A DNA stretch of 34,479 nt from Streptosporangiaceae bacterium (GTDB lineage Bacteria; Actinomycetota; Actinomycetes; Streptosporangiales; Streptosporangiaceae): assembly GCA_030040095.1 (NCBI GenBank), contig JASHUI010000526.1, forward strand, positions 1 through 34,479, read 5' to 3'. Under the pieces are notes generated by a model that searched no databases, had not been told where the DNA came from, and worked only from the letters and a program-made list of their open reading frames with translations. The stretch's first letter is position 1; each line of letters begins with the position of its first letter. The translations under genes were made by a program, and so were the position numbers. Shown here in pieces: positions 8,368-13,910 of this stretch.

Positions 8368-9660
8368 GTGGAGCGTGCCAGCGCGGTCGTCATCGGCGCT
8401 GGCCATGCGGGCCTGGCCGCCAGCCATTTCCTCACCGAACTGTCGATCGATCACGTCGTGCTCGAGCGCGGCGAGGTGGCGAACTCCTGGCGCCGCGAAC
8501 GCTGGGACTCCCTGCGGCTGCTCACGCCCAACTGGCAGTGCCGGCTTCCGGGCCATCGCTACGAAGGCCCGGAGCCGGACGGCTACATGACGGCCGGGGA
8601 AGTGACCGAGTTCATCGAGCGCTTCGCCAAGGTGTCGAACTCGCCCGTCCGGACCGGCGAGAACGTCACGTCGGTGCGACGTGCCGGCGGCGGGTACCAG
8701 GTGACGACGAGCCTTGGCGAGATCCGCTGCCGGACCGTGGTCATCGCCAGCGGTGCGTGCAACGAGCCCGCGGTGCCGCGGTTCCGGGACGCCGTGCCAG
8801 CATCCGTCGGGCAGCTGACACCGTTCGGCTACCGCGAGCCCGCCAGGCTGCCCGACGGCGGCGTGCTCGTCGTGGGAGCGTCCGCGACCGGCGTGCAGCT
8901 CGCGGCCGAGCTGCGGCGGTCCGGGCGGCCGGTGACCCTCTCAGTCGGCGAGCACGTGCGGTTGCCGCGCACCTACCGCGGACGCGACGTGCTGTGGTGG
9001 ATGGACGCGTCTGGGGTGTGGGACCAGCGGCACGACGCGCTCGAGGACCTCGCCAGGGCCCGGCGGCTGCCGTCGCCGCAGCTGGTCGGGACTCCCGAGC
9101 GGGCCACGCTCGACCTGAACGCGCTCGCCTCGATGGGCGTGGAACTGGTGGGCCGCTGGGCAGCCGTGCGGGACGGACGGGCGCTGTTCTCCGGCGGCCT
9201 GCGCAACGCGCTGCGGCTCGCGGACCTGAAGATGGACCGGCTGCTGGGTACCTTCGACGAGTGGGCCGCGACGGACGGCCGCAGCGCCGAGGTCGATGCT
9301 CCCGAGCGATTCGACCCGACGCGCGTTCCTGAGTCCGCTCGGTTGCAGCTTGACCTGCGAAGCGGGGAGATCCGCACGGTCGTGTGGGCGACGGGTTTCC
9401 GGCCTGACTACAGCTGGCTGGAGGTGCCGGTGGTCGATGCGAAGGGCCAGCTTCGGCACGATGGCGGTGTGGTCGAGAGCCCGGGCCTCTACGCGCTAGG
9501 GCTGCCCGTCATGCGGCGGCGCAGGTCCACGTTCATCTGCGGTGTCGAGGACGATGCGCGTGAGGTCACCGGCCACCTCGCTCGCTACCTGGCCGGGCCA
9601 TCGCCGTGGCCGGCAGGCCCTCAGGGTCAGCCTCATCCTCGACGCGGCCCGCGGGGTTAA
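8368..9660 (+). CDS. FAD/NAD(P)-binding flavoprotein oxidoreductase (flavin-monooxygenase / CzcO-like)
   Basis: GTG start. First dinucleotide fold: AVVIGAGHAGLAASHFL. Second: VLVVGASATGVQLAAEL. The C-terminal ATGFRPDYSWL motif is typical of this family. Confidence 0.8.
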   Translation: MERASAVVIGAGHAGLAASHFLTELSIDHVVLERGEVANSWRRERWDSLRLLTPNWQCRLPGHRYEGPEPDGYMTAGEVTEFIERFAKVSNSPVRTGENVTSVRRAGGGYQVTTSLGEIRCRTVVIASGACNEPAVPRFRDAVPASVGQLTPFGYREPARLPDGGVLVVGASATGVQLAAELRRSGRPVTLSVGEHVRLPRTYRGRDVLWWMDASGVWDQRHDALEDLARARRLPSPQLVGTPERATLDLNALASMGVELVGRWAAVRDGRALFSGGLRNALRLADLKMDRLLGTFDEWAATDGRSAEVDAPERFDPTRVPESARLQLDLRSGEIRTVVWATGFRPDYSWLEVPVVDAKGQLRHDGGVVESPGLYALGLPVMRRRRSTFICGVEDDAREVTGHLARYLAGPSPWPAGPQGQPHPRRGPRG

Positions 9661-9668
9661 CCCGCGGG
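9648..9668. terminator. Imperfect palindrome spanning the overlapping convergent stop codons (possible bidirectional hairpin)
   Basis: The sequence is cccgcgggg-TTAA-cccgcgggg. It gives 8 bp of pairing with one bulged G around the 4-nt loop TTAA (9657-9660). That loop simultaneously contains the + strand TAA (9658-9660) and the - strand TAA (9659-9657). There is no U-tract. Confidence 0.3.
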
Positions 9669-10853
9669 GGGGTCCCCGGTGCCGGCCAGCTGCAGGTCCG
9701 GCGCCACCAGGCTGGACATCCGCTGCCGGACGCCCAGCACGTACTGGCGCACATACTCCGCGCCGGCGATCCGCACGCCGTTCTCGTCGGCGCGGGCACC
9801 TGGCAGCGCGGCGAGCGCGCGGGCGATGGGATGGGACGCGACATCACCTGGTGGCACGCCGAACATCCGGGCCATGGCCGCGTAGCTCAGCCCGGAGGCG
9901 CAGCCAAGCGACTTTTCCAGGGCGAGTTCCAGGGTCACCGGGCCGGGCAGCATGGAGACCGGGTCGGACAGGAACCGCGGCAGGCCATGGGTGGTCAGGC
10001 AGCCGCGTGGCGCCAGAAACGAGTAAGCCTCGCTGCCGAAGCCAAAGGTTTCGCCCGCGTACCCGAAGTAGTAGTCCAGCGAGACGAAGTCCGCGTCGTG
10101 CGGCGGCCTGGTCCAGTGAAAGTACTCATGGTTGCGGTACCCCGCGTCGGCCAGTGCGCCCTCGATCTCGGGCAGTCCTGCCGCGTAGTCGGCGGCACCC
10201 CAGGCCCGCACGCCGCCCAGGCGCAGCTTGCGGACCAGCGAGCTGTTGGTGACGGGGTTGTAGACGTGCGCGGCAATGTGCGCGAGGTCGAGCGAGATGG
10301 CGGTCTGCACGCTGTGCAGGGTCTGCGTCACCGATTCGCCGGGATATCCGATGATCAGGTCGATGCTCAGCCGGTCGAAGCCGTACTGCCTGGCCAGGTC
10401 GAAGACGGCCAGGCCCGAAGCGGCGCTGTGCCGCCGCCCCATGCCGCGCAACGTAGCGTCGTTGAAGCTCTCGACCCCGATGCTCAGCCGGTTTACCCCT
10501 ATGTCGCGCATGGCGGCCAGGACCGGCGGGCTGATGCTGTCGGCCGTGGCCTCGACGCTGAAATACTGCTGCGACAAGTCCCACTCCGGACCGAACGCGG
10601 CGGCGATGGCGCGCAGGTTGTCCGGCGACAGGGTGGTCGGCGTGCCGCCGCCCCAGTTGATGCCGATGGGCGCGTACCGTTCGGCCAGGCCGGGCACATG
10701 GTGCCGGATGCTGGTGACCAGCGCCCGCACGTACGGGTCGTGCAGGTCGCGGTCGAGAAGCACGCTGTTGGGGATCGCGCTCACGCACCGGCAGAAGGCG
10801 CACCGGGCTGGGCAGAACGGTACCTGTACGTACAGCAGGATGGGCTCTTTCAT
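9657..10853 (-). CDS. HemN-like radical SAM enzyme (oxygen-independent coproporphyrinogen oxidase / HemW / ChuW / rSAM C-methyltransferase family)
   Basis: 398 aa from MKEPILLYVQVPFCPARCAFCRC. This carries the HemN-type CxxxCxxCxC (codons 14-23, nt 10785-10814), followed by INWGGGTPT and a HemN_C-like tail. The start is the ATG at 10853, 7 nt after the upstream gene's stop. The 159-codon N-terminal extension in the ORF track is Arg/Thr/Pro junk overlapping that gene. Confidence 0.88.
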   Translation of the reverse strand: MKEPILLYVQVPFCPARCAFCRCVSAIPNSVLLDRDLHDPYVRALVTSIRHHVPGLAERYAPIGINWGGGTPTTLSPDNLRAIAAAFGPEWDLSQQYFSVEATADSISPPVLAAMRDIGVNRLSIGVESFNDATLRGMGRRHSAASGLAVFDLARQYGFDRLSIDLIIGYPGESVTQTLHSVQTAISLDLAHIAAHVYNPVTNSSLVRKLRLGGVRAWGAADYAAGLPEIEGALADAGYRNHEYFHWTRPPHDADFVSLDYYFGYAGETFGFGSEAYSFLAPRGCLTTHGLPRFLSDPVSMLPGPVTLELALEKSLGCASGLSYAAMARMFGVPPGDVASHPIARALAALPGARADENGVRIAGAEYVRQYVLGVRQRMSSLVAPDLQLAGTGDPPAG

Positions 10854-10860
10854 GACCGTG

Positions 10861-12825: not shown

Positions 12826-12835
12826 GGGAGCCTCG

Positions 12836-13546
12836 CTATCCGAAGACCCGGTCGCGGAAGAGCGCGGCAAGCCATCCTGACCCGAATACCGCATCGTAGA
12901 CGCCGCCTCCCTCGCGCGAGTGAAGGTCGACCATTTCACCGACGAAGCTCGCGTTACAGGCGAGCTGTCTTGCACCGGAACCCGGCTGCGCGGTGGCAAG
13001 CTGGGCGAACCAGTGGCCGAGGCACATGCGGGCCAAGCCGAGTGACCAGTCGATCGGCGGCTCGTCTAGCCAGAACATCAGCCGCACGCCCGCAAAGGTG
13101 GGCGGGTTCTCTTTGGCAAGGGCGGCGGGCGGCTGGCCGAGAAGGCCCGAGAACAGCGCGCGAAAAGCCGCCAGCTCGCTGGGCTCGCCGCGGTATCCCG
13201 CGATGGTGTTGAAGGTCCCCGCCTTGATCTTGAGGTTCAGGTTCATGACGTACAGCGGCAGCCCCGTGCCCGCGAGGGGGATACAAATACACGCCACGAT
13301 CGAGGACATATGCGGGATCTCGCTGTCGAGCGAGAACCACACCACCCGGCCGAAGCTGGCCGACTCCCAGACGTCGAAGCGGTGACCAGCGGCGAACGGG
13401 CGAGATCTCGAGTCGATGACGAAGCGCTGCACGGCGCTGCTGTCGGCGTGCGCGTAGCCGAGGGTTTCGAGATGGCTAACGGCCAGCCAGCTGTATAGCT
13501 CGGCTCCGCCATCGATGAGCCATCCCACCAGGTCAAGGTCTGCCAC
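12836..13546 (-). CDS. Conserved-looking 236-aa protein with resemblance to ferredoxin-dependent bilin reductases (FDBR: PcyA/PebA/HY2 family); tentative
   Basis: The ORF itself is solid, with protein-like composition and tight operon spacing. The function call rests on a by-eye alignment to the Synechocystis PcyA sequence as I remember it. Matches are:
- LGY...(F/L)VI(D/E)xR...(H/F)Rxx(W/L)E
- SIVACICIPLAGTGLPLY versus DILHCVMFPEPLYGLPLF
- xxIA(G/D)(Y/L) strand
- C-terminal DAVFGSGWLAALFRDRVF versus EKAFGEAWAERYMSQVLF

The confidence given is for the family call; the CDS itself is about 0.8. Confidence 0.4.
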   Translation of the reverse strand: MADLDLVGWLIDGGAELYSWLAVSHLETLGYAHADSSAVQRFVIDSRSRPFAAGHRFDVWESASFGRVVWFSLDSEIPHMSSIVACICIPLAGTGLPLYVMNLNLKIKAGTFNTIAGYRGEPSELAAFRALFSGLLGQPPAALAKENPPTFAGVRLMFWLDEPPIDWSLGLARMCLGHWFAQLATAQPGSGARQLACNASFVGEMVDLHSREGGGVYDAVFGSGWLAALFRDRVFG

Positions 13547-13586
13547 TACGCAGTGCCTTGCGTTGTGTCGGACGACACCTGATCAA

Positions 13587-13910
13587 TCAGGTATCGAGAT
13601 CGCCGATCTTGGCGCCCAGCTGGAACTTCTGGTCGAATGCGTCCACCTTGCCCGCACCCACCAGGTCGTCGCAGACGATGACCAGGGCCTGCTTGCCCTC
13701 CAGCTCGCGCAGGGAACTCGACCCGTTGCCTCCGCTGAGGGCACCCCTGTCGTAGCGGCCGGTCCTGACCTGCCCGGTGTTGCCCGCCGCCTCGTCCTCG
13801 AGGACTACGACGGCTACCTGCTTCCCGGCGAGCATTCTCTCGCCCCGGCTCTGAAGTTCATCGACGTGCAGGCGGCCATCCTTGACCTGGCCCTGGAAGG
13901 TCGGATACAT
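13587..13910 (-). CDS. Small 107-aa protein of unknown family, first gene of the radical SAM operon
   Basis: The ATG at 13910 has AAGGA 7 nt upstream. The tracked ORF starts 23 codons earlier at a GTG without a usable SD. Sequence is MYPTFQGQVKDGRLHVDELQSRGERMLAGKQVAVVVLEDE...GKQALVIVCDDLVGAGKVDAFDQKFQLGAKIGDLDT. It has a single Cys, no signal peptide and no motif I can name. Confidence 0.55.
   Translation of the reverse strand: MYPTFQGQVKDGRLHVDELQSRGERMLAGKQVAVVVLEDEAAGNTGQVRTGRYDRGALSGGNGSSSLRELEGKQALVIVCDDLVGAGKVDAFDQKFQLGAKIGDLDT

Follow-up and report, generated by a model that had tools for sequence, protein, structure and literature searches.

What does a bacterial operon make when it combines a protein with the fold of a bilin reductase with two different radical S-adenosylmethionine (SAM) enzymes and a small protein of no recognizable family? 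This question is raised by a stretch of 34,479 nucleotides from a Streptosporangiaceae bacterium (assembly GCA_030040095.1, contig JASHUI010000526.1), referred to here as the window, in which four genes, which we call D, C, B, and A in that order, occupy positions 9657-13910 of the minus strand. An initial annotation, made from the letters of the window, had read these genes either as an oxygen-independent tetrapyrrole-processing system or as tailoring enzymes for the product of neighboring ligase and nonribosomal peptide synthetase (NRPS) genes. Our results lead us to propose instead, with a probability of about 0.6, that they form the core of an undescribed cassette of the type that makes peptides synthesized on the ribosome and then modified after translation (RiPPs), in which D would be the precursor, C and B the core modifying pair, and A an extra methylase. 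The genes, and the part of D on which the proposal turns, are the following.

13587-13910, minus strand: gene D, 107 amino acids, candidate precursor or scaffold peptide with an N-terminal domain of about 80 amino acids and a conserved C-terminal tail
13590-13643, minus strand: tail of D, codons 90-107, VDAFDQKFQLGAKIGDLDT, the proposed core or modification site
12836-13546, minus strand: gene C, 236 amino acids, GTG start, protein with the fold of ferredoxin-dependent bilin reductases (FDBRs) and without an FDBR sequence signature
10861-12825, minus strand: gene B, 654 amino acids, GTG start, putative cobalamin-type (class B) radical SAM enzyme
9657-10853, minus strand: gene A, 398 amino acids, class C (HemN-like) radical SAM methyltransferase

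The open reading frames (ORFs) were verified on the minus strand as four intact, co-directional genes, with the gaps of 40, 10, and 7 nucleotides (D/C, C/B, and B/A, respectively) that the initial annotation had given. The GC content at third codon positions is 0.81 to 0.88 in the D, C, and B frames, which is typical of real genes in this DNA of about 70% GC; the scoring covered these three genes, and the coding status of A rests on its orthologs in other loci (L004, L007, L008, L014, L010, L015, and L016), which score 288 to 604 bits. The window is clearly actinomycete-like, and an identical locus (L001) is present in assembly GCA_030046695.1 and in two sequencing runs. An Rfam scan of the whole window gave no match, including to cobalamin or SAM riboswitches, and a promoter and terminator scan found nothing above background. 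The PADLOC defense models gave no significant match, and the idea that the cassette is a defense system is unsupported. No curated family was found for C or D, and no paper on the gene set was found in the literature searched, in agreement with the earlier view that this combination is undescribed.

The arrangement of the genes is not a product of chance: the block turns up again in at least 12 independent loci, which come from three phyla. D, C, and B always occur together, in Actinomycetota, a gammaproteobacterial metagenome-assembled genome (MAG), Flavobacterium, Chitinophaga, and metagenomes, and their surroundings vary. A homolog of D adjoins C and B in every locus recovered, and C is the next gene upstream of B in each of the 14 loci in which the pair was compared, overlapping it in 7 and lying no more than 19 nucleotides away in 5 more; such tight spacing in 12 of the 14 fits a stoichiometric pair. 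The conserved core of the cassette is D+C+B. Both unclassified families are tiny, with 19 members for C and 18 for D among billions of proteins, and only three species-representative genomes, all of them Actinomycetota MAGs, carry C.

Around this core, three layouts can be distinguished. In Actinomycetota the order is D-C-B-A, and on the opposite strand there is either an ATP-binding cassette (ABC) exporter of the ABC-2 type with a PaaK-like ligase or a major facilitator superfamily (MFS) transporter. In three relatives from actinomycetes, A is followed by a third radical SAM gene (L007:13891-15795, L004:13929-15800, and L008:13896-15761), and the copy in L007 meets the model for the B12-dependent C-methylase KedN5 (907 bits, cutoff 700). 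A KedN5-family gene in these three relatives fits a multiply C-methylated product, and the window cassette, in which this third gene is missing, is a reduced version. In the gammaproteobacterial MAG and the metagenome contigs related to it, the genes are arranged A-D-C-B, with an MFS gene next where the contig extends far enough (L015 and L016), and the copies of A in these loci are true orthologs (288 to 308 bits). In the Bacteroidota (Flavobacterium sp., Chitinophaga flava, and metagenome contigs) the operon runs regulator, D, GNAT-type acetyltransferase, C, B, in some cases DUF6580, then an outer-membrane barrel of the TonB type, and finally an ABC exporter that includes a C39 peptidase domain; in some of these contigs an ATP-grasp gene precedes the operon. 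Among the Bacteroidota loci no class C radical SAM gene was called, and A is a lineage-specific addition to the conserved core. DUF6580 and the TonB-type barrel stand between B and the peptidase-exporter in L020, L023, L025, and L027; DUF6580 is not mentioned in the literature searched, and these two components could serve export of the product across the outer membrane or uptake of corrinoid for B.

The initial annotation left gene D, in which it recognized no family, as an unexplained extra, and it is to this gene that the evidence points as the substrate. The lack of a family was borne out, as neither Pfam nor NCBIfam has one for D and 12 of 12 members gave no SpoVT/AbrB match in Pfam; among 5.8e9 proteins, 7 relatives were found with the single sequence and 18 with a profile. 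The AlphaFold2 model of D has an overall predicted local distance difference test score (pLDDT) of 66, with a small beta domain predicted for residues 1-80 (pLDDT 72-80) and values below 50 in residues 84-92 and 97-107. The sole match in a fold search was a weak one, to the swapped-hairpin barrel PhS018 (E 0.037). The tail carries the nearly invariant motif D-x-[KR]-x-x-L-G-x-x-x-G-D-x-D-x at the extreme C terminus, and the protein always ends one residue beyond D106. Six of the nine invariant columns in the 18-member family (D93, L98, G99, G103, D104, and D106) lie within the last 15 residues, and the columns of the tail (residues 90-107) have a mean entropy of 1.04 bits, versus 1.99 bits for those of the body. 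That the worst-predicted segment of D is also its most conserved one fits a substrate or recognition peptide and not a structural core.

In D proteins encoded together with A, Phe is conserved at position 92 and Phe or Tyr at position 96, and the Bacteroidota versions without A have Ile at position 92, a correlation that is confounded by phylogeny. The sequence E-A-E-L-[IL]-I-G-G, a double-glycine leader end of the classical kind, is found only in the Bacteroidota homologs of D, where about 25 residues separate it from the C terminus, and only the Bacteroidota operons have the C39-peptidase ABC exporter, which closes the operon in the loci examined in detail (L020, L023, L025, and L027). This exporter retains the catalytic SDCGLAC motif and scores 410 bits against the model for the NHLP bacteriocin exporter (cutoff 853). 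Two intergenic regions of L023 were scanned for another ORF encoding a double-glycine peptide, and none was found there. The co-variation of the double-glycine motif with the C39 exporter is the best evidence that D may be a precursor made on the ribosome and then modified, cleaved, and exported.

Gene B was initially called a B12-binding radical SAM protein, of which the radical SAM part is well supported (Pfam Radical_SAM, 1.8e-18) and the B12-binding domain reaches only a sub-threshold score (1.2e-3, 19 bits versus a cutoff of 32). The best NCBIfam models for B are ApyD (82 bits), rSAM_ocin_1 (TIGR03975, 70 bits), and PhpK (67 bits), all of them scored far below their cutoffs (750 for ApyD and 282 for TIGR03975), and the BchE model, at only 31 bits, falls far behind these RiPP and P-methylase models. 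These top matches are class B families, that is, peptide and phosphinate methylases of the cobalamin class. By inspection, the N terminus has the LLLxxPP…GH-x-C-x-V-x-D-L-N and D-V-I-G-I-S…GG layout usual for class B, with an insertion of about 130 amino acids. The cluster motif is Cx4Cx2C (CSYGRCHYC; C301, C306, and C309) and not the canonical CxxxCxxC, and it is invariant in all 13 orthologs of B from three phyla; class B includes other departures from the canonical motif, such as the CX7CX2C of MpcB. On these grounds B appears to be nearest, weakly, to the RiPP C-methylases ApyD and rSAM_ocin_1, the second of which stands for the PoyB/C-type peptide C-methylases. ApyD beta-methylates a Tyr that belongs to GYLYD, a C-terminal motif of the ApyD precursor, and in the proposed scheme the modification would likewise take place in a conserved C-terminal precursor motif. 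Proteusins have long, protein-derived leaders. There are differences too, in that ApyD has its own RiPP recognition element (RRE), which was not detected in B, and the matches of the four genes include no MNIO, P450, or NHLP/Nif11 leader. In fact, searches of Pfam and NCBIfam found no RRE or PqqD-like domain in D, C, B, or A, and its absence from B makes a separate recognition protein plausible, with C as our candidate for a functional stand-in. In a tblastn search of plasmids, the nearest relative of B (26% identity over 555 residues) was found on Rhizobium phaseoli pRphaR744c (L030:3290-9106), where it is preceded by genes for an ATP-binding protein and an S8 peptidase and has no C-like gene; this set may be another uncharacterized peptide-modification system.

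Gene A carries the motifs CPARCAFCRC (with the core CPARCAFC) and WGGGTPT (GGGTP) and matches Pfam Radical_SAM at 1.8e-17, so that the initial description of a HemN-like radical SAM protein with CxxxCxxCxC and GGGTP motifs is upheld; the fourth Cys of this HemN motif is variable within the A family. We placed A by NCBIfam cutoffs and PDB scores. In the PDB search it aligns with NocN over residues 5-300 (296 residues, 3.5e-42, 148 bits), and E. coli HemN reaches about half of that score (1e-20, 78 bits). Every curated cutoff is missed, with 130 bits against 321 for HemZ, 115 against 205 for HemW, 97 against 325 for HemN, and 91 against 400 for ChuW/HutW, and since NocN is far closer, we reject the identification of A as a HemW chaperone, a coproporphyrinogen dehydrogenase (HemN), or a ChuW enzyme. 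A is, as judged from these alignments, a class C radical SAM methyltransferase closest to the indole/thiopeptide methylase NocN, which acts within a RiPP pathway (PMC12871812). The likeness to the class C thiopeptide methylases (NosN/NocN and TbtI) does not extend to the pathways around them, as YcaO, a dehydratase, pyridine synthase, and NosL were not found in the window, and nothing here corresponds to the indolic acid on which NosN acts.

Gene C is the most unusual of the four, and the initial label "FDBR-like" holds for its fold and fails for its sequence. The AlphaFold2 model, built with 11 homologs, has a pLDDT of 90.7 and a predicted template modeling (TM) score of 0.89, and the first 44 matches in a Foldseek search of the PDB are all PcyA, PebA, PebS, PebB, HY2, or RCCR (E 2.8e-7 to 2.7e-3, TM 0.5-0.64, about 240 columns, 10-17% identity), with which C shares the alpha/beta/alpha sandwich over its full length. 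None of 11 family members matches any Pfam family, including Fe_bilin_red, at E<=10; NCBIfam has no family for C; and PDB sequence searches with the single sequence and with a profile gave no real match. The 5.8-billion-protein collection contains 11 relatives of C, and an exhaustive hidden Markov model (HMM) search of 1.84e9 representatives with the C profile returned 19 proteins, all of them family members and none a bridge to FDBRs.

For a comparison of residues, a 23-member alignment of C was set by hhalign against a small alignment of PebS, PebA, and PebB, with PebS of cyanophage P-SSM2 as reference. The two are collinear over 152 columns, with a probability of 23.6% and an E of 8.6e-4. 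In this low-probability alignment, LPLFVMN102LNLK of C pairs with LPCFGMD105LMK of PebS and FGSGWL…F with FGEGRS…F; two catalytic residues of PebS, Asp105 and Asp206, fall on the invariant Asn102 and His209 of C, and PebS N88, at the position of PcyA His88, falls on the near-invariant Ala85. What remains of the FDBR motifs in C is LP-x-F-x-M-[N]-L (LP-x-F-G-M-D-L in FDBRs) and FG-x-G-W…F (FG-x-x-W…F-L-F in FDBRs). C thus appears to be a very divergent FDBR-fold protein that has lost the FDBR proton donors. Its setting differs from that of FDBRs as well, because its hosts are heterotrophic Actinomycetota, Bacteroidota, and Gammaproteobacteria, and the Pfam listings of about 12 loci contain no heme oxygenase or bilin-binding gene near it. 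It is possible, if doubtful, that C is nevertheless an active enzyme, which would make it the first of its fold to work on a non-tetrapyrrole substrate, performing ferredoxin-driven or acid/base chemistry on the acidic G-D-x-D-x peptide tail alongside B, with a new RiPP class or a peptide-scaffolded antimetabolite of soil actinomycetes and Bacteroidota as the outcome. A role of C as a B12 or heme chaperone was also considered, and nothing specific speaks for it.

In the RiPP-type scheme that we favor, D would be the substrate, with its folded N-terminal domain serving as a protein-like leader for the flexible C-terminal tail. B and C would be the universal modifying pair, in which B may methylate one or more unactivated carbons of the tail and C may act as the substrate-binding or scaffolding subunit of B. 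We speculate that the FDBR pocket of C, where FDBRs bind the propionate-bearing bilin, could grip the acidic G-D-x-D-x-COO- tail. A would probably methylate an sp2 carbon, for which the ring of Phe92 or Phe96 is a possible target, and the divergent ABC-2 transporter would export the product. The scheme draws on the fact that the nearest curated models for B are RiPP C-methylases and that the nearest solved relative of A is a RiPP methylase. As expected of a RiPP locus, the candidate precursor gene is adjacent to and co-inherited with those for the modifying enzymes; as for a leader/core cleavage site and a protease, the Bacteroidota relatives have ELIIGG and the C39 exporter, and the cassette in the window has neither a double-glycine motif nor a protease.

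A precedent for C as a partner subunit of B is provided by the clavusporin pathway, in which the B12-dependent radical SAM enzyme MpcB (CX7CX2C) is inactive without the DUF5825 protein MpcC, which was suggested to be a scaffold or a substitute for an RRE (PMC10849626). The mpc genes likewise form an actinomycete operon that encodes a precursor, a cobalamin radical SAM enzyme with a non-canonical motif, a co-evolving partner without a recognizable RRE, and a transporter (PMC10849626). The two systems are nonetheless distinct. C is not a DUF5825 protein, having no Pfam match, and it is unrelated to the C terminus of B, which MpcC resembles in MpcB; hhalign of C against B, which served both as a control and as a test for an MpcC-like relationship, was negative (probability 0.3%). 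The motif is Cx4Cx2C here and CX7CX2C in MpcB, the precursor has about 100 amino acids with a folded domain as opposed to the 39-mer MpcA, and the cassette lacks an S9 peptidase and has an added class C radical SAM enzyme. The likeness to MpcC was judged from its published description, as the match found on S. clavuligerus pSCL4 is not the mpc cluster.

Several points weigh against the RiPP-type proposal. What the analysis establishes is the gene structure, the fold and family assignments, the strict co-inheritance, the conservation of the tail, and the association of the double-glycine motif with the peptidase-exporter in relatives; all of the chemistry, including the modification of D, the atoms concerned, and the role of C, is what we infer. 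The D protein of the window has no double-glycine motif, and the actinomycete versions yielded no candidate for a leader protease. With its length of about 100 amino acids and conservation along all of it, D may be a folded partner protein. The matches of A and B to RiPP enzymes are at the superfamily level, far below the model cutoffs, and we know of no peptide-binding role for the FDBR fold. The co-occurrence of the double-glycine motif with the peptidase-containing exporter comes from about three related Bacteroidota lineages and is phylogenetically confounded, and the residue correspondence with PebS is taken from a low-probability profile alignment (23.6%).

Two other explanations keep a peptide or protein role for D. 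In a scaffold-peptide route of the pearlin or PQQ kind, which we consider unlikely, B, C, and A would convert the C-terminal residues of D to an amino-acid-like metabolite that is clipped off and exported, leaving D as a disposable carrier. The invariance of the extreme C terminus and its fixed end one residue past D106 would suit such a route, as would the small-molecule-type exporters (ABC-2 and MFS) that take the place of the peptidase-exporter in the actinomycete versions, the PF11251 heme-oxygenase-like diiron-type protein encoded in one locus, and the nitric oxide synthase gene beside another. The GNAT of the Bacteroidota operons, which along with this C-terminal position is the chief argument for the route, is most like arsinothricin and phosphinothricin N-acetyltransferases, which detoxify amino-acid antimetabolites, but this match is weak (86 bits, cutoff 210), and GNATs also acetylate the N termini of RiPPs. 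Moreover, the double-glycine motif and the peptidase-exporter imply that what Bacteroidota export is a peptide of about 25 residues, and there is no conservation of a releasing peptidase or of an aminoacyl-tRNA-dependent ligase. Alternatively, D may not be a substrate at all; it may function in regulation, as a chaperone, or in immunity and contain a swapped-hairpin domain like that of AbrB, in which case C, B, and A would act on a small molecule. The position of D at the head of the operon, its conservation from end to end, and its predicted fold would agree with this, and the swapped-hairpin barrel that is its only fold match (E 0.037) is used by DNA binders of the AbrB/MazE type. We nevertheless regard this as improbable: the fold match is weak and finds no echo in Pfam, conservation is strongest in the poorly predicted tail and not in the barrel, the double-glycine motif is found only where the C39 peptidase-exporter is present, and the Bacteroidota operons are already flanked by separate AraC- or LuxR-type regulators.

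The two interpretations of the initial annotation look elsewhere for the substrate. In the oxygen-independent tetrapyrrole pathway, A would open or methylate heme in the manner of ChuW, B would act like BchE or BchQ, and C would reduce the linear product as FDBRs do. C does have the full-length FDBR fold with FDBR-like motifs, A belongs to the HemN-like superfamily that includes ChuW, B needs a corrinoid, and in one Chitinophaga locus a gene with the heme oxygenase fold lies beside B; the operon also resembles the ChuW/ChuX/ChuY system for anaerobic heme degradation in joining a HemN-like radical SAM gene to one for a putative reductase-fold protein. The annotation had staked its case on synteny in other genomes, on a structural match of C to FDBRs, and on A falling outside the HemW chaperones, and it survived on these points, as the gene set is syntenic elsewhere, the fold match of C is significant, and A does not reach the HemW cutoff. 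It had also noted that the window lacks a heme oxygenase, and there is none among the main genes of the window. What argues against the pathway, and makes it very improbable in our view, is that A is much nearer to NocN than to ChuW/HutW, that B is nearer to RiPP and P-methylases than to BchE, and that the catalytic positions of FDBRs are apparently replaced by Asn102, His209, and Ala85 in all or nearly all members of the C family. Furthermore, the cassette shows no ChuX, ChuY, or heme-uptake genes, the Pfam listings of about 12 loci contain no heme-uptake, ChuX/Y, heme oxygenase, phytochrome, or porphyrin-biosynthesis family, and both the strictly co-inherited small protein D with its invariant tail and the peptidase-exporter would be left unexplained. 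Least credible of all is the tailoring of the product of the ligase and NRPS genes of the window by the radical SAM enzymes. The cassette does lie 10 kb from an NRPS set of adenylation-thiolation (A-T), condensation-adenylation-thiolation (C-A-T), and thioesterase genes with pyridoxal phosphate (PLP) enzyme, M20 peptidase, GNAT, and methyltransferase genes, and it does so again in a second sample (L002), but NRPS genes accompany the cassette only in the lineage of the window. Within 10 kb of the orthologous cassettes whose C proteins are 55-58% identical (L004, L007, and L008) there are no NRPS genes, and the more distant L010, L014-L016, L020, L023, and L028 also have none; in the one Chitinophaga locus with an NRPS (L025), it is on the other strand at a distance of about 8 kb, with unrelated genes in between. 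The cassette, moreover, brings its own exporter.

Radical-SAM-modified ribosomal peptides are already known, and what is new here is the FDBR-fold component, the protein-like candidate precursor with an invariant C-terminal motif, the putative cobalamin radical SAM enzyme with Cx4Cx2C, and the pairing of class B with class C enzymes. If the RiPP-type proposal is true, the cassette would represent a new family of ribosomal peptide natural products, in which a fold known mainly from bilin and chlorophyll-catabolite reductases would have been recruited to peptide maturation. It would also provide, after MpcBC, a second B12 radical SAM enzyme that needs a partner other than an RRE and would help to explain how peptides are recognized. 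The system is directly testable, since there are culturable relatives (Flavobacterium sp., CP139148.1, and Chitinophaga flava) and co-expression methods are established. Our analysis also removes a false lead, namely an actinomycete "anaerobic bilin pathway" suggested by three tetrapyrrole-flavored annotations.

On the opposite strand, the cassette is adjoined by the genes of the transport operon.

14129-15115, plus strand: ABC transporter ATPase (DrrA-like), divergent from the cassette; ABC_tran 1.9e-28, drrA subfamily 198 bits (cutoff 312)
15096-15884 and 15874-16734, plus strand: two ABC-2 type permeases; ABC2_membrane on both products in L001 and on 15802-16734 in the window
16841-18172, plus strand: PaaK/DVU_1553-like adenylate-forming ligase, which closes the exporter operon; AMP-binding 7e-12

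An ATPase gene opposite the cassette is conserved in L001, L002, L004, L005, and L007, and the permease pair is conserved in L004 and L007; the divergent ABC transporter is probably the exporter of the product. The ligase scores 132 bits with DVU1553_fam_AMP and 88 bits with PaaK, both below the cutoffs, and it is an optional accessory, present with the ABC genes in L001, L004, and L007 and absent from L008 and L014, where an MFS gene replaces them.

Farther along the window (19192-31552 and 32795-34348) lies the NRPS-type cluster, with genes for a ThrC-like PLP enzyme, an M20 peptidase, a GNAT, a SAM methyltransferase, A-T (24122-26227) and C-A-T (26148-29462) proteins, a thioesterase, and an MFS exporter, followed by a LuxR regulator fused to an alpha/beta hydrolase. 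This cluster is not conserved beside the cassette in other genomes. On the other side, positions 3607-9660 hold a sulfur- and redox-flavored set of genes for a luciferase-like monooxygenase, a PLP enzyme of Cys/Met metabolism, an alpha/beta hydrolase, OsmC, and a flavin oxidoreductase of the MSMEG_0569 family (361 bits, cutoff 498); the last gene of this set converges on A, and the ends of the two overlap at their stops by 4 nucleotides. Two further ORFs, at 1624-3210 (minus strand, 528 amino acids) and 31989-32765 (plus strand, 258 amino acids), are well-coding and have no Pfam or NCBIfam family.

Some individual cassettes in other genomes have neighbors of their own. In Chitinophaga flava, a gene of the PF11251 (HamA_HO-like) family follows directly after B (L025:13465-14274), which places a heme oxygenase fold and an FDBR fold in one operon, at this one locus only; its product has no NCBIfam match, and the family is one that we take to consist of diiron oxidases and not heme oxygenases. 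In one metagenome contig, the gene that comes next downstream of D-C-B-A encodes a nitric oxide synthase (PF02898; L014:7326-8549). Upstream of the Micromonosporaceae cassette (L008:1-5320) there are two nitroreductase-family genes together with genes for a tetratricopeptide repeat (TPR) protein and a MatE exporter and an ORF of 36 amino acids, and this group may be another small-peptide cluster.

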